DNA of 37,809 bases, from IMG/VR virus record IMGVR_UViG_2602041644_000008, positions 1-37,809 of that record; one strand, written 5' to 3'. The stretch comes from a virus (taxonomy: Duplodnaviria; Heunggongvirae; Uroviricota; Caudoviricetes). The notes under the pieces are model-generated. The model was not told where the DNA came from and searched no databases. It worked only from the letters and a program-made list of their open reading frames with translations. Positions 2,690-36,360 of the stretch are shown here, one piece after another. Every line of letters begins with the position of its first letter. Position 1 is the stretch's first letter. Position numbers and translations under genes: made by a program.

Positions 2690-3092
2690 CGTCTTTTCTC
2701 CCCGGAATTAACTCGCGTGGATTATCGGAACGGTGATAGAGCCAGATGCCAATTCGTACTGCGACGATTGCTGACACAAATGCGCCAGCAGAGAAAACAA
2801 TCCCTTTCTCGAAAGAGTCCTGCGTGATGGTAGGTATCAGGCTGGCTATGCCGATAAGAATTGATGCTGCTGGTTTGTAGAAAAGAAGTCCGCAGAGAAA
2901 ACTAAGCATCGACAAGAGTACGCGACGACGAATTGGGTACTCTACCGCAGAGGTAACAAAAATTACCGCGCCAGCCAAAGCTCCCAAAGCAACCTCAGGA
3001 GGCACTCCTGCTATCACCGCCGCCAGAGAACTCATGCTAAGCCACTGATTTAATGTTTCACTGGTTAGTTGAGCTGACATATTTTCCACCAT
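2676..3092 (-). CDS. Holin candidate (multi-TM membrane protein)
   Basis: 3-4 hydrophobic helices and a charged C-terminal tail. First gene of the lysis cluster. Confidence 0.45.
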   Translation of the reverse strand: MVENMSAQLTSETLNQWLSMSSLAAVIAGVPPEVALGALAGAVIFVTSAVEYPIRRRVLLSMLSFLCGLLFYKPAASILIGIASLIPTITQDSFEKGIVFSAGAFVSAIVAVRIGIWLYHRSDNPRELIPGRKDDGNA

Positions 3093-3301
3093 TTATATGC
3101 ATAACGACCCCCTAAATAGTAAAACATCATGCATGATAAACCATTTGTGGTTTTTTGTTACCCTGACATCGTCAATCCCCTGCCTTTGATGTCGATAATA
3201 AGGCTCGCCTTTTACATAACTCTGAACAGATTGCAGTACAGAAATGATTTAAAATATAGAGGCTTAGTTGAATTCCGCGCCATCAAATGGCGCGGTAGCA
3301 G

Positions 3302-3586
3302 TCAAATATAGAAATAAACACCAAAACAAACAGTAACAGGAACAACAAAGTCAAACAGGCTTCCAACATCCCATACGCGCGGATCAAAACCGCCCCACCA
3401 CGGCATGTTCATACGCTTGCCATGCCCGAACATTTCAATCCAGCGATATTCTGCCTGGGTGTGTTCACGCGCAATGAAGAACGTACAACCAGCTATCGCT
3501 CCATAAGCCCAGTTTCCGGTAAAAAGGCCAATCAGTACCTGCGAAGCCACAGCACAAAACGCATGAAGGAAAGGTGTTATATCCAT
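3302..3586 (-). CDS. Small polytopic membrane protein (94 aa), unknown function
   Basis: Start reassigned to MDITPF, which follows AAGGAG-N6-ATG; the upstream 21 codons of the tracked ORF lack an RBS. Several TM helices. Sits between tailspike and lysis genes, where epsilon15-like phages carry O-antigen-modification or exclusion genes. Confidence 0.5.
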   Translation of the reverse strand: MDITPFLHAFCAVASQVLIGLFTGNWAYGAIAGCTFFIAREHTQAEYRWIEMFGHGKRMNMPWWGGFDPRVWDVGSLFDFVVPVTVCFGVYFYI

Positions 3587-3620
3587 TATCGCTCCTTTAA
3601 CATAAGGATAAATAAACACT

Positions 3621-5936
3621 TCATAAAATAGATTTCGTCTTTGTAACAATAATATCTACAAAATCACCTGCAGATATAGCTGATGGTACTGTATCTGCAA
3701 GAGTAATCTTTTCTGAAGAGATGTTTTGCACATCTAATAATTTATTTTCAACCCCATCCGTATATACCAATTTGACATCACTGAATGGAGGGTAATAAGT
3801 GACTGTTCCTTGGTATACATATATTTCAATGCCTGAAATTGATTTCACTACATACCTGCCCCTTACAAGATTAATTTTGAGTTCAGATAAATCGGTTTTA
3901 TAACAGGTAATTCCTGAACCAATGTTAGCCATACTAATATCAGTATCACTATAATAAGTAATTGCTTTTCCTTGTTTTAAGGTGAAGTTATCTTTGCTTT
4001 TCCTTGGCAAGGATGTGCTATTTTTGTAATATCTACCAGTTAAGCATAGCCATGAAAATGCAGTATTCGCTACATTACCACCAGAATACACAGCTAAACG
4101 AATTGCACTAACTGGAACCCCTTCATTATTAATCCTGATCTTAATGGAAGAAATGTTAGCAACAGTAGCATATCTATGGTTAGATGAATCCCATTGCATA
4201 GAAGAAGTTATTGCTTCTGTTTGTGAAGTTATGACATTCCCATCTCCATCTAATGCATACAGGTAAATGCGAAACGATGCCGTATCTGCTGAGAATGTAA
4301 ACATATCACCATTTCTTACTGGTACATCTCCAGATTCCCATAACAACCCAAAATTCCGCATAAAAGCAAACTTAGAAGAAACTAGGTGACGGATATTATA
4401 TAAACCATCTACATCTGTTTGATATGCTAATACACCAACTTCTCCATTGTTGGCACTGGATATAAATGGGGTGTTAGCATTTAAAGAAAACAATGTTACT
4501 TCATCGGATATATTTTCCTGAACATGAAATACTGCATTCCCCTTGCCATTATCAGTTACCTCTACATAAGTGTAAGGTGATGGATTGTATGGTTCATTTG
4601 TATAGTAAGGAGAACTTAACCATGAAGCCTCAATTGAGTTATTCCACGTATATTCACCAAAGTTAATTATCAACTGTTGGTTAGTTGGGGATGATGGATA
4701 TCGTTCAAAACGAAACCCGTAGAAGTAATTGTTATCACCTCTTTGAATATCAATTTTACCTGCCCCCTCCATAGTTCCACCATAAAACTTATTGTGGTTA
4801 TGATGATATGGATTATCAGCGAAAATTATATTATTCGTACGATTCAGATAAAAATAGTTTTCATTTATCCATCCGTTCTCAACTCCAAGAAAATGAATTG
4901 TATCGACCTTTTTCAGGTTAAAGGTTGAGTATGCTATTGAATAATCCGTCGATGCCACCGAAGCATTATAATTTGCATATAACTGTAAGTAGTCGCAACG
5001 CTCAATGTTTATATGCTGCCCTTTTGCCCCGATAATACGAATATCCGGTGTCGTTTCAGATGAAATACCAGAATTTCTGATAATCGTTCCGAAGTTTTGT
5101 CTTGGGTTGTTAGGGTTTGATGCATTCCCGCCAAGCAATACCCCTATTCCTGAGTGGGATATGGTAAAAACAGCATTGGTCATTTCGAGGCTGACATTAC
5201 GAAGATTTAATGTCTCCGTAATAATAAAATTACCTTCCGCTCGTAATGTTCTGGATGATTCTCGTGCATATTCTGCAGCCAGGATCAATGCAGATGTATC
5301 ATCTGTTATACCATCGCCTTTTGCCCCAAAATCGCAAACACTAACGGTGTCTCTCATCTTATCCTGGAACGTTCGGTATACTGCTCCAGAACCATACTGA
5401 ATAAACCAACCAAAACCACCAACAACCCCGGCGATTGCAGCATCGACATAATTACGCATTGAGCGATTATTTACAGCGTCCTGCTCAAGTGATGGATCTG
5501 CAAGGTTAGAAATTTTGTTTTGCTTTGCATCGTAATATTTTGCAAGCAAAGATGGTTTCATCAATGCACGTCTGAACCACCCAAAACATTGCTGGATCAG
5601 CATCGTCAGGTAGTCAAAAGCATCTTCATGCACTTCGGGGAAAAATTTTCCCTGATTGCGAAGATCTGTCTCCTGCACTACATCAAGCACACGATCTATC
5701 GTAATTCGCCAGCCAGCAGCAAGCGGAGACGGCAGAACCACTGAACCGCCACTATAAGTGCCCGCCCCAGTTACCGTATAACCGGTATCCAGAACCAATT
5801 CTGTTACGTTCCCGTTCAGGTCAGACACCTGAACAACCAGGTCTGATTTTCTGAAAATTCGAAAAGTATACGGAAACGATGTCGTAACGCCGTTACCTGT
5901 GTATTCGTTGTGGTCAACTTCGGTTGAGACCGTCAT
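3621..5936 (-). CDS. Tailspike/tail fibre: T7 gp17-like N-terminal adaptor domain plus right-handed beta-helix (pectate-lyase-3-like) depolymerase domain
   Basis: N-terminus EYTGNGVTTSFPYTF..DLVV..DY..LPSPL..DLRN matches the gp17 N-terminal pattern. Internal CDFGAKGDGITDDTSAL is a beta-helix motif. C-terminal two-thirds is AT-rich (receptor-binding module). Confidence 0.8.
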   Translation of the reverse strand: MTVSTEVDHNEYTGNGVTTSFPYTFRIFRKSDLVVQVSDLNGNVTELVLDTGYTVTGAGTYSGGSVVLPSPLAAGWRITIDRVLDVVQETDLRNQGKFFPEVHEDAFDYLTMLIQQCFGWFRRALMKPSLLAKYYDAKQNKISNLADPSLEQDAVNNRSMRNYVDAAIAGVVGGFGWFIQYGSGAVYRTFQDKMRDTVSVCDFGAKGDGITDDTSALILAAEYARESSRTLRAEGNFIITETLNLRNVSLEMTNAVFTISHSGIGVLLGGNASNPNNPRQNFGTIIRNSGISSETTPDIRIIGAKGQHINIERCDYLQLYANYNASVASTDYSIAYSTFNLKKVDTIHFLGVENGWINENYFYLNRTNNIIFADNPYHHNHNKFYGGTMEGAGKIDIQRGDNNYFYGFRFERYPSSPTNQQLIINFGEYTWNNSIEASWLSSPYYTNEPYNPSPYTYVEVTDNGKGNAVFHVQENISDEVTLFSLNANTPFISSANNGEVGVLAYQTDVDGLYNIRHLVSSKFAFMRNFGLLWESGDVPVRNGDMFTFSADTASFRIYLYALDGDGNVITSQTEAITSSMQWDSSNHRYATVANISSIKIRINNEGVPVSAIRLAVYSGGNVANTAFSWLCLTGRYYKNSTSLPRKSKDNFTLKQGKAITYYSDTDISMANIGSGITCYKTDLSELKINLVRGRYVVKSISGIEIYVYQGTVTYYPPFSDVKLVYTDGVENKLLDVQNISSEKITLADTVPSAISAGDFVDIIVTKTKSIL

Positions 5937-6039
5937 GTTAAATCTCCAGATAGTCGCAGCACCCGTTGCGCCGCATATCTGGTTATTCTATTACCCAAAA
6001 AACCATATATGGATAGAAAGACTGTGAATATGAATAGAT

Positions 6040-6056
6040 ATTACCTTTCAGGTAAT
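6040..6056. promoter_or_regulatory. Operator dyad ATTACCTTTCAGGTAAT
   Basis: Perfect 6-N5-6 inverted repeat. Lies between the divergent tailspike gene and the 6133 ORF. Confidence 0.6.
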
Positions 6057-6092
6057 TTGCAAAACGTGCTGGATAGCAAACAAATTATTTGC

Positions 6093-6112
6093 TACTGTAT
6101 AAATATACAGTT
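6093..6112. promoter_or_regulatory. LexA (SOS) box TACTGTATAAATATACAGTT
   Basis: Perfect CTGT-N8-ACAG with an AT-rich centre, 20 bp upstream of the 6133 start. Confidence 0.6.
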
Positions 6113-6132
6113 ATTGCATGGAGAAGATTAAG

Positions 6133-6390
6133 ATGCAGCAGTATCACTATCCACTGGAAGACGGATTTACCGAAAGGATTCACACGCCGGGAGGCGTCAG
6201 GTCACTGGTGGAGGGATCGCACTTGATGAAATTACTCCGGGATCTCGATAAGGATGGATTTAATGTCGATGGCCCACTTGCCGAACTGACTGCACTGATT
6301 AACTACGTCACCAGCTCACAGATGTCTATGCAGGATCTGCAAACACATCTCGACTATTGTGCCGAACAATTACGAAAACAAACCACATAA
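6133..6390 (+). CDS. Small protein (85 aa) paralogous to the C-terminal domain of the adjacent Bro-N protein; candidate SOS-induced antirepressor
   Basis: RBS GGAGAAG 7 nt upstream. Residues TPGGVRSLVEGSHLMKLLRDLDKDGFNVDGPLAELTALINYV..DLQTHLDY align with Bro residues SPSGVLGLTENSLLMNLLNQLQEDGHDVSGAAAELTTMFCYI..DIQTHAEY. LexA box upstream. Confidence 0.5.
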   Translation: MQQYHYPLEDGFTERIHTPGGVRSLVEGSHLMKLLRDLDKDGFNVDGPLAELTALINYVTSSQMSMQDLQTHLDYCAEQLRKQTT

Positions 6391-6412
6391 AGAAAAGGCC
6401 GCTAGAGCGGCC
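6391..6412 (-). terminator. Rho-independent terminator (mainly minus strand) after the 6412..7140 gene
   Basis: GGCCGC-TCTA-GCGGCC followed by TTTTCTTT on the minus strand. Confidence 0.5.
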
Positions 6413-7140
6413 TATCGTTTCGCTTTGTGCTCGTCCCAGCACGTTTTGCACCATGCCATTAAGCCATCCGCATTTTGATTATTAGGGTAAAAGCTGGTTC
6501 GTTTTCTGCGGACATTACAAATTGGGCACCACTTCATATGGCGTGTATTCTTTGGACCATCGAGACACCTTGCACACCACTTAGTCAATCCATCTGGATT
6601 TTTTGACGATTTCCTGAATTTTTCATATGGAAGGTTTATTCTGCATCGCAAGCACTGCTTGCTACCACTTGAAACTCTGTTAGCTGATTCTTCTTTTGGC
6701 GGCGATACAGAAGGTATTCTTGCTGGCTCTGATACTGCCTGAGGTGCTTTTTTAGATGACTGAGACGATATGTCATCACCAGGGAATCGTCCATGATATG
6801 CCGGACGCGTTGACACTCCAGGTGGAAGCTCTGCTGTAAATGGCTTTGGCTGAATCAGTTGCCTCTCTTTTGCTAACTCCTGCTGTTTATAATATGTCTG
6901 GATTACCGCACTATCATAAGCAGGAGGTGCGGAAATATTAGGCGCATTACCTCCAGTTTTTTGAAACTGAGTAGAGGTGTGTTCTATCACCTGTGTACGA
7001 TTAATCGTTATCTCCCCATCTTCGGTCTTTATCGTTTTGTTATGATTAACGACCGTACGATCAGAGATCTTAGTCTTGTTCTGGTTGATAACATAAATAA
7101 TCACCGCAACCACACCAACAACTATCCAGAAAACTTCCAT
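6412..7140 (-). CDS. Membrane-anchored protein with Pro/Ser-rich linker and C-terminal tandem CxxC zinc-ribbon repeats (unknown function)
   Basis: Strong RBS GAGGAAAAG. N-terminal TM FWIVVGVVAVIIYVI. C-terminus has two repeats: CLRCRINLPYEKFRKSSKNPDGLTKWCARC and CPICNVRRKRTSFYPNNQNADGLMAWCKTC. Low GC. Confidence 0.6.
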   Translation of the reverse strand: MEVFWIVVGVVAVIIYVINQNKTKISDRTVVNHNKTIKTEDGEITINRTQVIEHTSTQFQKTGGNAPNISAPPAYDSAVIQTYYKQQELAKERQLIQPKPFTAELPPGVSTRPAYHGRFPGDDISSQSSKKAPQAVSEPARIPSVSPPKEESANRVSSGSKQCLRCRINLPYEKFRKSSKNPDGLTKWCARCLDGPKNTRHMKWCPICNVRRKRTSFYPNNQNADGLMAWCKTCWDEHKAKR

Positions 7141-7269: not shown

Positions 7270-7535
7270 TTTACATCGCACTCCTCTTGTGCCATAGTAA
7301 TTGGGCACTGGCAAAATCCAGTGCCGGGATTGGTCTCCCGGATTACTACAGAGGCACATATGCCGCATAAGCGGTTTTTTTATGTGTAAAGCGCACCTAT
7401 TCTATGGTGAGCTGTGTGGGGGCACCGAAAGGTGCGCCGGGTTCCTTTGTAGCCGGTAAGACCAACTCTGCACAGTTCACCACCATCTGATTGGTCTCAG
7501 CGGTGGTGATTAACCTAACTACAAAGGTGATCGCC

Positions 7536-8228
7536 ATGAATACCAAACCTTCCATCTTTTCCTTTGAGTCATCCTGCCAGATCCGTATGTTCATGATTGA
7601 CGGAGAACCTTGGTTTGTCACCAAAGATGTGTGCAATGCTTTGAATATTGATGTTACACAAGCGAGAAAACTTGATAAAAAAGGCTGGAACAAAAAGGGG
7701 CTGTATTCAATACAGACCCCTGGTGGAATACAAGAACTATCCATCGTTTCAGAATCAGGTCTCTACATCCTTATTCTGCGTTGCAAAGAGGCAATGACAG
7801 AGGGAACGAGAGCGTTCAGATTTCTTGAATGGGTTACAGGTGAGGTTCTTCCTCAGATCCGCCGCACCGGAAGTTACATTAAAAACTCGCTCCCGCAGGA
7901 AGAACGCATAAAGATGGTTGCCGACCAGGTAGCCAACGCCACAGCATCAGCAATGATGCAGGCAATGAAGATAGAGAACAAAACCTACAGTGCCCCACTG
8001 AAGCCCGGCTACCGTAGCCTGATTCATTCTCCGTCTGGTGTTCTCGGCCTGACGGAGAACTCACTGCTGATGAATCTGCTGAACCAGTTACAGGAAGACG
8101 GGCACGATGTATCGGGCGCGGCGGCGGAGCTGACCACCATGTTCTGCTACATCGTCGGTGTGAGCAAATGCCTGCGTGATATCCAGACCCACGCGGAGTA
8201 CATCAACGACAAAGCAGGATTCTTCTGA
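7536..8228 (+). CDS. Bro-N domain protein (antirepressor-like, BRO family)
   Basis: Start moved to MNTKPS, which follows AAGGTG-N7-ATG. Bro-N signature FSFE...IRMFMIDGEPWFVTKDVCNALNI. C-terminal domain is paralogous to the 6133 ORF. Confidence 0.7.
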   Translation: MNTKPSIFSFESSCQIRMFMIDGEPWFVTKDVCNALNIDVTQARKLDKKGWNKKGLYSIQTPGGIQELSIVSESGLYILILRCKEAMTEGTRAFRFLEWVTGEVLPQIRRTGSYIKNSLPQEERIKMVADQVANATASAMMQAMKIENKTYSAPLKPGYRSLIHSPSGVLGLTENSLLMNLLNQLQEDGHDVSGAAAELTTMFCYIVGVSKCLRDIQTHAEYINDKAGFF

Positions 8229-8299: not shown

Positions 8300-8316
8300 A
8301 TTACCTTAAAGGTAAA
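8300..8316. promoter_or_regulatory. Operator dyad ATTACCTTAAAGGTAAA
   Basis: Immediately upstream of the promoter/RBS of the 8358 ORF. Confidence 0.55.
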
Positions 8317-8357: not shown

Positions 8358-8684
8358 ATGACAAAACTTGGATTCGTGATGAGAGGTCCGGTAAGAAGCG
8401 GAACTCATGCAAAGCGTAGCAAGAGTCGTATTTTTACTGGTAAGGTTGTAGCACGTAAATCAGCTATTGGCTCGTTCAATAGTGAAAATGCGGCATTGCG
8501 CCATATTTTTATCAGCACAAAGCCAAGAGCATCCGCTGATGTGCATACAATGTCTATTCCTATCACAAAGAATATCAAGCGGATAAAAAAGCTCTCATCT
8601 GCAGAATCAAAAGAGATATCTTTCCGCCAGCTTAACTCATTAGAAACGCATATGAAGGAAGAGGAATTCGATGTTTTTGAGTGA
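8358..8684 (+). CDS. Basic 108-aa protein, first gene of a two-gene operon (putative antitoxin partner)
   Basis: RBS GGAGATTAAAG-ATG. Overlaps the downstream gene by 14 nt. No recognisable domain. Confidence 0.35.
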   Translation: MTKLGFVMRGPVRSGTHAKRSKSRIFTGKVVARKSAIGSFNSENAALRHIFISTKPRASADVHTMSIPITKNIKRIKKLSSAESKEISFRQLNSLETHMKEEEFDVFE

Positions 8685-9183
8685 GTATAGCGGGAAGGTT
8701 ATACCTACTGGTGAGTTTAAAACTGATGACTTTCTGATTTCGCTAAAAGATGCTTTTAAACAACACTGGCGTCATGGTCATCATCCTGATCTGGGAAAAG
8801 ATACTCTTTTTGAAAGACCAGACGAAGTATTAGGCTTCCATCTCAGAAAGGTTCATGTCAATATTGGTGAATATGCATCATATTCATACTCATGTACTGA
8901 ACAGTGTTGGGATGAGTGGTCATATGGATTGATTGATGAACAAGGAAATTACAGGCCAAAACCAACCAGTAACGCATATCTCATATATGCAGTCAATGAA
9001 ATAAGAGATGCAGCCTTACTAGCTTATTGGGACCCGCCCGCACACACCAAAGCTAACGCAAAAGTTTGGATGGATTCCGTATTGAATTTCACAAAATTAT
9101 TTCATGAACGAACTAATACAGCTCCACTTAGTAGAAATGTTTATCCGTGGGATTATTCGTACAAATCCAAAAAGCCTGCATAG
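8671..9183 (+). CDS. YafO-like toxin family protein (candidate type II TA toxin)
   Basis: RBS GGAAGAGGA. Segments HPDLGKDTLFERPDE, FHLRKVHVNIGE, NAYLIYAV and ALLAYWDPPAH parallel E. coli YafO motifs (LPDIFGRDALYDD, FERVAHIHLANE, AHLVYC, LLIAILKPEPH). Comparison is from memory only. Confidence 0.4.
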   Translation: MFLSEYSGKVIPTGEFKTDDFLISLKDAFKQHWRHGHHPDLGKDTLFERPDEVLGFHLRKVHVNIGEYASYSYSCTEQCWDEWSYGLIDEQGNYRPKPTSNAYLIYAVNEIRDAALLAYWDPPAHTKANAKVWMDSVLNFTKLFHERTNTAPLSRNVYPWDYSYKSKKPA

Positions 9184-21405: not shown

Positions 21406-21425
21406 TTCTCCATTAGTGGGTCTGT
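21406..21425 (-). promoter_or_regulatory. Stem-loop immediately downstream of the major capsid gene (transcript stabiliser/partial terminator)
   Basis: GTGGGTC-N6-GACCCAC. Typical placement for capsid-gene stoichiometry control. Confidence 0.4.
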
Positions 21426-25344: not shown

Positions 25345-25433
25345 ATCAATGACTCCGTACGCAATTAAATTATTACCAATTTAACCACATATGATTTATT
25401 TATCGTAGATAATTGACATTTAACGCACGAGTT

Positions 25434-25450
25434 ATTACCTTTCAGGTAAG
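25434..25450. promoter_or_regulatory. Operator dyad ATTACCTTTCAGGTAAG next to a TTGACA -35 box (25413-25418)
   Basis: Intergenic, between the start of the minus-strand late genes and the plus-strand leader/tRNA unit. Confidence 0.5.
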
Positions 25451-25771: not shown

Positions 25772-25848
25772 GTGGCATTAGCTCAGTTGGACAGAGCAAC
25801 CGCCTTCTAAGCGGTTGGTTGCAGGTTCGAATCCTGCATGCCACGCCA
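25772..25848 (+). tRNA. tRNA-Arg (anticodon UCU)
   Basis: Cloverleaf: acceptor GTGGCAT/ATGCCAC, D-arm GCTC..GAGC, anticodon stem ACCGC/GCGGT with loop CTTCTAA, T-arm GCAGG-TTCGAAT-CCTGC, 3' CCA encoded. Resembles argU. Confidence 0.85.
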
Positions 25849-35640: not shown

Positions 35641-36225
35641 ATGAAAAGTATCCAGGACGTCCGCAGGCAAAATCTCAACGACTTGATCGACCGTGAATTC
35701 AATGGTGTTCAGACGCGGATGGCTGAAAAACTTGGAACTCAGGCAAATCTGGTAAACCGCTGGGCTCTTGGCAAGAAGGTTATCGGCGACCAGGTTGCGC
35801 GAAAAATTGAAGCTGCCGCCAATAAACCCCGTAACTGGCTTGATATCGATCGCTCGCTTTCTCAGGAAGGTTTTCAGCCTGTCGGACCAAGCGACATTGG
35901 TCAACTGGCGGCTCACAACCTGGAACGCTGGATGAGCGAAAGCCGCGACCTTTCAACGCAGGGAAAACTTCACCGCGCATCCGGCGTCGCCCAGGTAACA
36001 ATCAGCCGCCTGTTAAACAATGAGGTCAGCGTTTCCATTTCCACCCTGGAGAATGTTGCATCCGCATTTGGGCGTCACGGATATGAATTACTGATTCACC
36101 CGCACGACCCCGCGACTATCAACTATGACCGCTCGCGCTACGCATTGTTACCTGAAACAGAGAAGGCAAAGATCGAAAGTTACATTGAATTTGTCATCAA
36201 CCAGAACGAAAAAAACAAACAATAA
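35641..36225 (+). CDS. Prophage repressor, two XRE-type HTH domains, no S24/LexA-like peptidase domain
   Basis: HTH1 TRMAEKLGTQANLVNRWALGKK. HTH2 LHRASGVAQVTISRLLNNEVSVSISTLENVASAFG. No Ser/Lys autocleavage module. Divergent from cro with three operators. Confidence 0.65.
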   Translation: MKSIQDVRRQNLNDLIDREFNGVQTRMAEKLGTQANLVNRWALGKKVIGDQVARKIEAAANKPRNWLDIDRSLSQEGFQPVGPSDIGQLAAHNLERWMSESRDLSTQGKLHRASGVAQVTISRLLNNEVSVSISTLENVASAFGRHGYELLIHPHDPATINYDRSRYALLPETEKAKIESYIEFVINQNEKNKQ

Positions 36226-36281: not shown

Positions 36282-36298
36282 ATTACCTAACGGGTAAT
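36282..36298. promoter_or_regulatory. Operator dyad ATTACCTAACGGGTAAT
   Basis: Perfect dyad upstream of the promoter for the recombination operon. Confidence 0.55.
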
Positions 36299-36316
36299 TT
36301 TTTTAACTCATATCTA

Positions 36317-36360
36317 TTGACATCAAACCAGATACGCATAATTATTACCTCAACGGTAAC
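36317..36360 (+). promoter_or_regulatory. Early promoter (TTGACA-17-AATTAT) with operator ATTACCTCAACGGTAAC (36344..36360) over the -10/+1 region
   Basis: Consensus -35 hexamer. Dyad overlaps the -10/start region. Drives the plus-strand genes from 36379 onward (PL-like). Confidence 0.5.

Follow-up and report, generated by a model that had tools for sequence, protein, structure and literature searches.

A probable LexA-repressed antirepressor gene of the SPC32H Ant type in a Uetakevirus genome

The viral genome IMGVR_UViG_2602041644_000008 of IMG/VR, analysed over its whole length of 37.8 kb and hereafter called the window, is that of a Uetakevirus, a temperate podovirus similar to epsilon15, phiV10 and SPC32H. 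Beside its tailspike gene it contains a short open reading frame (ORF) of 85 amino acids, hereafter called ant, which very probably codes for an antirepressor that is repressed by the host LexA protein and that disables the prophage repressor, Rep, upon DNA damage. The assignment is based on our own analysis of the homology of Ant and Rep to proteins of the Salmonella phage SPC32H, the shared gene order, a LexA box in front of ant that is both unique in the window and conserved in relatives, and the lack of a peptidase domain in Rep. The complex between Ant and Rep and the control by LexA are known from published work on SPC32H, by analogy with which LexA binding, SOS-dependent transcription and binding of Ant to Rep are predicted for the phage in the window. 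The LexA-Ant-Rep mechanism is thus already known in Uetakevirus, and because Ant and Rep of SPC32H, and LexA, have been studied both genetically and structurally there is nothing new in the mechanism as such. Kim & Ryu 2013 (J Virol 87:11775) and Kim et al. 2016 (PNAS 113:E2480) reportedly describe this lytic switch in SPC32H.

Relationship of Ant and Rep to their SPC32H counterparts

The ant ORF starts with the ATG at position 6133 and its stop codon ends at position 6390. The predicted protein has 88% amino acid identity (tblastn) with the product of ant of the Salmonella phages SPC32H (KC911856) and SPC32N (annotated as "anti-repressor protein"), and its residues 2-85 align with residues 3-86 of chain E of the PDB entry 5D50, "Anti-repressor protein", with E = 1.3e-47. 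The start codon chosen here fits the SPC32H Ant of 86 amino acids used in crystallography, the Ant of the window being one residue shorter. Proteins with 100% identity are annotated as "hypothetical proteins" in the Escherichia phages TL-2011b and EC.W1-9, and the Ant of the Escherichia phage vB_EcoP_ZX5 (ZX5) is identical over 84 of the 85 residues. The DNA of the region is 91-98% identical between the window and these three phages and phiV10.

The protein matches phrog_450, a family labelled "unknown function" in PHROGs. No Pfam or NCBIfam family matched it; a match to DUF724 (17.6 bits, the cut-off being 38.4) was rejected as noise, and neither a Bro-N (PF02498) nor a P22_AR_N domain was found with Pfam. 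When 1.84 billion representative proteins were searched with a profile, only 60 clusters with an Ant-like domain were obtained, some of them consisting of standalone proteins of 81-95 amino acids and others having the domain at the C-terminus of proteins of 130-319 amino acids. The small number of clusters and the presence of fusions among them indicate that the domain is narrow in distribution yet occurs as a fusion.

The window also encodes a full-length homologue of the SPC32H repressor. Rep matches chain A of 5D50, "Repressor", over residues 1-190, i.e. over its full length (E = 4e-42), and residues 89-190 also match 5D4Z_A. The layout predicted by homology is that of two domains similar to a helix-turn-helix (HTH), followed by a C-terminal region for tetramerisation and Ant binding. 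The initial annotation of the window, which was made from the sequence without database searches, had stated that this repressor has no LexA-like autocleavage domain, and Pfam indeed gave only families of the HTH type and no Peptidase_S24 in the protein. The Rep of the window is 100% identical to those of phiV10 and ZX5. In an alignment of five Uetakevirus Reps the sequence NLVNRW, in the region of the recognition helix, and the C-terminal motif YD..Y..LP..EK.KI were invariant, and the invariance of NLVNRW across the genus fits a shared operator.

In the window ant and the tailspike gene are transcribed away from each other, ant lying at the end of the virion operon with a terminator behind it. 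The order of tailspike gene (- strand), ant (+ strand) and terminator is common to the window, SPC32H and epsilon15. The 771-amino-acid ORF at 3621-5936 (-) corresponds to the gene annotated as tail fiber or tailspike in the records of the matching Escherichia phages. The G+C-rich hairpin that separates ant from a convergent ORF of 242 amino acids is likely a bidirectional terminator, and the epsilon15 record has a rho-independent terminator annotated at the same place. All features of the SPC32H Ant family that can be assessed from a sequence were present in ant of the window, which is therefore regarded as a known gene.

The LexA box in front of ant

A LexA box of the form CTGT-N8-ACAG, 20 bp upstream of an ORF with a good ribosome-binding site, had been reported in the initial annotation, and both the box and the ribosome-binding site (GGAGAAG) were confirmed. 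The box, TACTGTATAAATATACAGTT, has two mismatches to TACTGTATATATATACAGTA, the 20-nt consensus for LexA of E. coli, the other 18 positions being in agreement, and is separated from the ATG of ant by 20 nt. No other site in the window comes within three mismatches of the consensus, and none was obtained in 100 shuffles; the remaining 20-mers all differ from it at seven or more positions. For the loose pattern CTGT-N8-ACAG there are three occurrences in the window (0.52 expected); those at 21422 and 25964 have G+C-rich spacers, fall outside the eight best matches to the consensus and were attributed to chance.

The intergenic stretch between the tailspike gene and ant was aligned for nine phages of Escherichia, Salmonella, Enterobacter and Klebsiella. 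The seven of these that are not Klebsiella phages all had the arms CTGT and ACAG unchanged, around a variable 8-nt spacer (ATAAATAT, ATATTTAT, ATGTTTAT, ATAAGCAT and ACATATAT, with GTATTTAT in phiV10). In the two Klebsiella phages the box reads ATGT-N8-ACAG. Fixed arms around a varying spacer are the pattern expected of a protein-binding palindrome under selection.

The equivalent box of SPC32H is TACTGTATGTTTATACAGTG, in which SPC32N carries the change ACAG>AAAG. This is one of exactly two base differences between SPC32H and SPC32N over a locus of 6.2 kb. According to Kim and Ryu, SPC32N is reportedly SPC32H with two nucleotide changes, one of them in the LexA site which overlaps the ant promoter, and this mutation reportedly makes SPC32N synthesise Ant constitutively. 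The ACAG>AAAG change found in the SPC32N box agrees with that account.

SPC32H, the switch of which is represented by PDB entries 5D50 and 5D4Z, thus resembles the phage of the window in genus, in the position of the gene, in Ant (88% identity) and in having a full-length Rep homologue, as well as in a LexA box at the same distance before ant and an ATTACC-N5-GGTAAT dyad upstream. It differs in the extent to which Rep is conserved (42% identity) and in the length of Ant (86 and 85 residues), and the window differs from both SPC32H and epsilon15 in that an ORF of 242 amino acids and an isrK/C4/Bro-N::Ant cassette, both discussed below, were acquired beside ant in the E. coli lineage.

Proposed induction pathway

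In a lysogen, LexA of the host would sit on the box at 6093-6112, overlapping the ant promoter or directly behind it, and would keep ant silent. DNA damage would activate RecA, LexA would cleave itself and ant would be transcribed. Ant, which is a tetramer in SPC32H, would then bind the C-terminal domains of Rep and convert the DNA-bound Rep tetramer into dimers which bind the operators poorly, Rep itself remaining uncleaved. Rep would leave its ATTACC-N5-GGTAAT operators and the lytic genes would be expressed.

The steps have precedents in the literature. A review, citing Kim & Ryu 2013 among others, describes several Salmonella prophages in which LexA self-cleavage allows an antirepressor to be produced that contacts the lytic repressor and thereby inhibits it (PMC7380047). 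As summarised from Kim et al. 2016 in later structural papers, the DNA-binding form of Rep is a tetramer, which is broken when an Ant tetramer binds two Rep dimers (PMC9638917), and the C-terminal domain of Rep both tetramerises the protein and contacts Ant (PMC9986798). Lysogens of ZX5 released 10^7 plaque-forming units (PFU)/mL spontaneously and 10^9 PFU with mitomycin C (PMC9782041). The idea of the initial annotation, that an antirepressor controlled by LexA acts on a repressor which does not cleave itself, is supported by the homology to SPC32H Ant and Rep, the gene order and the conserved box; that the system had already been described in SPC32H had escaped that annotation.

The Bro-N::Ant paralogue and its C4 module

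A second, paralogous antirepressor candidate of 230 amino acids is encoded downstream of ant. Its N-terminal part contains a Bro-N domain (residues 16-106, E = 2e-13, 51.2 bits with a Pfam cut-off of 25.6) and its C-terminal part, approximately residues 147-228, is an Ant-like domain. The similarity between the 85-amino-acid protein and the C-terminus of this Bro-N protein had been noted from the sequence alone and was found to be significant. The alignment, which runs without gaps over 74 residues (149-222 of the Bro-N protein), has 42% identity (E = 7e-16). The C-terminus also matched 5D50_E (E = 9e-14) and the protein matched phrog_450, the Ant family, with E = 3e-37, so that by sequence it is a true paralogue of Ant. 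The idea of a module shared by the two proteins therefore stood as real homology, to which a predicted isrK/C4 control of the Bro gene itself, missed at that stage, has to be added. A match to P22_AR_N was weak (E = 0.004) and below the family cut-off. The combination of Bro-N and Ant-like domains is already present in PHROG families annotated as "anti-repressor" (phrog_1760 and phrog_130).

The corresponding ORF4 of ZX5 is 80% identical to the Bro-N protein of the window, residues 107-230 being the same but for one. Overexpression of ORF4 reduced the titre of the ZX5 prophage from 10^9 to 10^6 PFU/mL (PMC9782041); the text of that article leaves the small ant undiscussed and LexA unmentioned, and in the GenBank record of ZX5 the small ant is a hypothetical protein. 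In phiV10 the "anti-immunity" gene p23 (3071-3750) diverges from its relatives inside the Ant-like domain and ends early, followed by the 30-amino-acid ORF p22. The early end is consistent with a frameshift, and phiV10 seems to lack a complete second antirepressor and to keep the small ant.

Directly upstream of the Bro-N::Ant gene lie an isrK-like RNA with its own terminator and a C4 antisense RNA, both above the gathering scores of their Rfam models. The model c4-a1b1 scored 38.3, under its gathering score of 46.7, on the stretch which isrK RF01394 covers above threshold. From a promoter-like TTTACA-17-CATAGT sequence (7270-7298), transcription would start at about 7305, where isrK has its 5' end. 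Both recognition elements of C4 are unpaired in the Rfam consensus structure. One of them, CCUUUGUAG, is the exact complement, over 9 nt, of CUACAAAGG in the leader of the Bro-N::Ant gene, which overlaps the Shine-Dalgarno region 8 nt before the ATG at 7536. The other, AGACCAA, perfectly complements the 7 nt UUGGUCU, which occurs in the leader (7491-7497) as well as in isrK (7330-7336), and by eye CUACAGAGG in isrK (7347-7355) is a 9-nt complement of C4 with a single G-U pair. When the targets were mononucleotide-shuffled, 14 (leader) and 9 (isrK) of 500 shuffles reached the observed duplex energy. As the energies are only moderately better than those of the shuffles, the argument for C4 rests on the exact complementary blocks and on covariation. 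The leader also contains an in-frame TTG at 7491, and ZX5 has a 37-amino-acid "ash family" ORF annotated.

The cassette is found in phiV10, TL-2011b, ZX5, Tyrion and a Klebsiella ST512 prophage, and is absent from SPC32H, epsilon15, BUCT554 and BUCT711. Two types of C4, A and B, were distinguished (Table 1), and the changes between them are matched in C4, leader and isrK alike, i.e. they are compensatory. Because Rep is 100% identical in the window, phiV10 and ZX5 and the C4 types differ, these phages would share Rep immunity and differ in C4 specificity, which would correspond to the relationship between P1 and P7. In the literature searched no description of a bipartite immunity of the P1/P7 style was found for Uetakevirus. 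We tentatively suggest, as a possibility somewhat short of an even chance, that the Uetakeviruses of E. coli, Enterobacter and Klebsiella use the Ant domain twice, in the LexA-controlled Ant and in a C4-silenced Bro-N fusion, and that phages which are homoimmune with respect to Rep break each other's immunity by means of the C4-controlled antirepressor.

TL-2011b has at 7455-7522, a few kb from ant, a match to the Rfam family of sar RNA, the antisense RNA of P22 immI (44.8 bits, gathering score 43). No equivalent Rfam match for sar RNA was obtained in the window.

The presence of a second gene raises the possibility that it is the Bro-N::Ant paralogue which inactivates Rep, the small Ant being redundant or serving cross-talk with other prophages. 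The paralogue does carry a domain homologous to Ant, the near-identical ORF4 of ZX5 lowered lysogeny upon overexpression, and the Salmonella phages in which the switch was studied have no second gene of this kind. Against this, the consensus scan of the window found no LexA box near the Bro-N::Ant gene, which is not LexA-controlled, and the C4 antisense RNA that precedes the gene and is complementary to its ribosome-binding site argues for its silence in the lysogen. Moreover, phiV10 has its Bro-N::Ant gene truncated inside the Ant-like domain and its small ant intact, and small ant with its LexA box has been kept throughout the genus. This explanation was therefore considered unlikely.

Neighbouring genes

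The location of ant in a variable, moron-rich stretch between the tailspike gene and the virion operon, and the database labels "hypothetical" or "unknown function" for its product, would also fit an accessory role for the 85-amino-acid protein, in which it is induced by SOS but acts on some other target (e.g. a protein of the host or of a defence system), the LexA box merely timing a moron gene. Yet the protein is 88% identical, over its full length, to one which was crystallised in complex with a phage repressor, a homologue of that repressor is encoded in the window, and this repressor has no autocleavage domain although mitomycin C does induce the sibling phage ZX5. An accessory role was accordingly judged very improbable, and a LexA-repressed antirepressor of Rep remains the preferred assignment for ant.

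The 242-amino-acid ORF between ant and the Bro cassette (6412-7140, - strand) matches phrog_6762, of unknown function. On visual inspection its N-terminus is hydrophobic and its C-terminus contains cysteine-pair repeats, and weak matches to endonuclease VII, Lar and Stc1 were obtained. The ORF is annotated only as a misc_feature in TL-2011b and is absent from ZX5, phiV10 and SPC32H. Further downstream, behind a Rep-type dyad at 8300-8316, two ORFs of 108 (8358-8684) and 170 (8671-9183) amino acids, both on the + strand, overlap by 14 nt. The 170-amino-acid protein had a sub-threshold match to YafO_toxin (E = 9.5e-4), and the pair may be a toxin-antitoxin-like moron.

Promoter and operators of ant

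A scan for sigma-70 promoters before ant with a threshold of at least 9 of 12 matches gave nothing, and the best candidates of a relaxed scan had 7 of 12. With low confidence, the best conserved candidate for the ant promoter would be TGGATA-17-TACTGT, both hexamers of which are invariant in the seven non-Klebsiella sequences. A second candidate, TTGCAA-18-CAAATT (6057-6086, also 7 of 12), would place the LexA box at the transcription start. The copy of a dyad operator which the initial annotation had seen in front of ant proved to be a perfect 17-bp dyad, ATTACCTTTCAGGTAAT, directly adjoining the -35-like TTGCAA.

With up to two mismatches allowed, ATTACC-N5-GGTAAT has 16 sites in the window, where 1.26 are expected. 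The twelve best (one mismatch or none) are mostly intergenic and include sites on both sides of rep. The same motif is annotated as a "repressor / lysogeny" protein_bind feature at seven places in the GenBank record of epsilon15, one of these being upstream of gp19, its ant orthologue. A further dyad, ATTACCTTTTAGGTAAA, abuts the TTTACA of the promoter-like sequence in front of isrK. The like geometry at the ant and isrK promoters suggests a common role of Rep, whether repressing or activating, at both.

Three of the observations weigh against the assignment of ant proposed here. The promoter scan gave no candidate above 7 of 12, and Rep has only 42% identity with the SPC32H Rep while Ant has 88%. 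In addition, if Rep repressed ant from the dyad abutting the -35-like hexamer, loss of LexA would be insufficient for its expression. The lack of a strong promoter and the position of this dyad would be expected if LexA did not bind the LexA-like palindrome, which would then be a relic or have arisen by chance, and if Rep alone controlled ant through the site at 6040-6056. This explanation is hardly credible given that no LexA site of equal quality was obtained in 100 shuffles, that the arms of the box are conserved around a varying spacer across three host genera and that SPC32N has a natural point mutation in the equivalent box.

Other dyads were also associated with promoter-like sequences. 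A near-consensus promoter, TTGACA ... CATAAT, lies between two Rep-type dyads just downstream of rep (36282-36360) and is probably the Rep-controlled early promoter; epsilon15 has three repressor sites annotated at the corresponding place. At 25414-25450 (+) a consensus TTGACA is followed by a Rep-type dyad (25434-25450) over the expected -10 position, pointing towards a tRNA gene at 25772-25845 (+; Rfam, 73.2 bits), in a region where the large ORFs are on the - strand.

Table 1 Features of the ant, Bro-N::Ant and rep regions of the window, and types of C4 RNA
Feature	Position	Strand	Basis or remark
Predicted Rep operator, perfect 17-bp dyad ATTACCTTTCAGGTAAT	6040-6056	.	Kept in 9 relatives
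Candidate ant promoter TGGATA-17-TACTGT	6070-6098	+	7/12 matches; -10 inside left arm of LexA box
LexA (SOS) box TACTGTATAAATATACAGTT	6093-6112	.	Consensus match, conservation
Ribosome-binding site of ant, GGAGAAG	6120-6126	+	Invariant in non-Klebsiella relatives
ant, 85-amino-acid antirepressor, SPC32H Ant orthologue	6133-6390	+	Homology, phrog_450
G+C-rich hairpin between ant and convergent 242-amino-acid ORF	6396-6413	.	epsilon15 counterpart
Rep-type dyad ATTACCTTTTAGGTAAA	7253-7269	+	Abuts TTTACA of promoter-like TTTACA-17-CATAGT, 7270-7298
isrK-like RNA with own terminator	7305-7381	+	Rfam RF01394, 74.7 bits (gathering score 50)
isrK decoy site for C4 (a1/b1-type), UUGGUCU	7330-7336	+	Complementarity
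isrK decoy site for C4 (a1/b1-type), CUACAGAGG	7347-7355	+	Complementarity
C4 antisense RNA	7400-7487	+	Rfam RF01695, 78.2 bits (gathering score 45)
C4 recognition element CCUUUGUAG	7444-7452		Hairpin loop
C4 recognition element AGACCAA	7459-7465		Unpaired junction
C4 target in Bro-N::Ant leader, UUGGUCU	7491-7497	+	
C4 target in Bro-N::Ant leader, CUACAAAGG	7519-7527	+	
Second, paralogous antirepressor candidate, Bro-N + Ant-like C-terminus, 230 amino acids	7536-8228	+	Domain searches
rep, SPC32H Rep-type prophage repressor	35641-36225	+	Pfam, PDB matches, family alignment
C4 type A (window, Tyrion, Klebsiella ST512 phage)			C4 CCUUUGUAG, AGACCAA; targets CUACAAAGG, UUGGUCU
C4 type B (ZX5, phiV10, TL-2011b)			C4 CCUUUUAG, ACGCCAA; targets CUAAAAGG, UUGGCGU

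Comparison with other antirepressor systems

According to Kim and Ryu, the Ant of SPC32H reportedly differs in structure from sipho- and myovirus antirepressors. The Tum protein of phage 186 and the antirepressors of Gifsy-1, Gifsy-3 and Fels-2 follow the same logic as Ant, an uncleaved repressor being bound and inactivated by a small LexA-repressed antirepressor (Shearwin 1998; Lemire et al. 2011, PMC3121763; PMC7380047), but no sequence relationship between them and the Ant of the window was detectable with Pfam (including families of the DinI/Tum type), NCBIfam or PHROG. The analogy to 186 Tum and Gifsy-type systems drawn in the initial annotation consequently applies to the functional logic and does not extend to the sequence, for which no Pfam family was matched.

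The parallel with P1/P7 and with Gifsy-1 concerns the neighbouring Bro-N::Ant gene and not the small ant. The immI region of P1/P7 (a1 b1 - c4 - a2 b2 - icd/ant) resembles the Bro-N::Ant locus in having an isrK-like RNA and a C4 RNA upstream, loops complementary to the ribosome-binding site and to decoys in isrK, and recognition elements which covary from phage to phage. Unlike in P1, the controlled gene of the window codes for Bro-N with an SPC32H-Ant-like domain instead of Ant1/2, and the phage is a podovirus with an additional, separate LexA-controlled Ant. The layout is also similar to that of the isrK-orf45-anrP locus of Gifsy-1 (PMC4825925), in which transcription past the IsrK terminator yields an mRNA that codes for an antirepressor-like protein but is inactive, its translation being activated in trans by the short IsrK RNA (Hershko-Shalev et al. 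2016, PMC4825925).

Like the phage of the window, P22 is a temperate podovirus with an antirepressor gene beside the tailspike gene. The P22 Ant, encoded in the immI region and controlled by Mnt, Arc and the sar RNA, is large and is not LexA-controlled, and it has no sequence similarity to the 85-amino-acid Ant. As a P22 ant mutant stays SOS inducible, the P22 Ant is dispensable for SOS induction (PMC7380047).

Distribution and significance

Of 5426 complete E. coli genomes, 529 (about 10%) contain the ant locus with the LexA box (6030-6400) at an identity of at least 90%. Among the matches listed, ant was annotated as a "hypothetical protein" in 10 of 10 records. The practical worth of the present assignment thus lies in annotation, there being neither a Pfam or NCBIfam model nor a function in PHROG ("unknown function") for the protein and the records naming it hypothetical. 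With this gap in annotation the SOS-inducibility of these prophages is easily missed, and the prophages affected include relatives from enterohaemorrhagic E. coli and O157 strains, e.g. TL-2011b and phiV10. The C4-controlled paralogue, for its part, could explain superinfection and cross-induction among co-resident Uetakevirus prophages.

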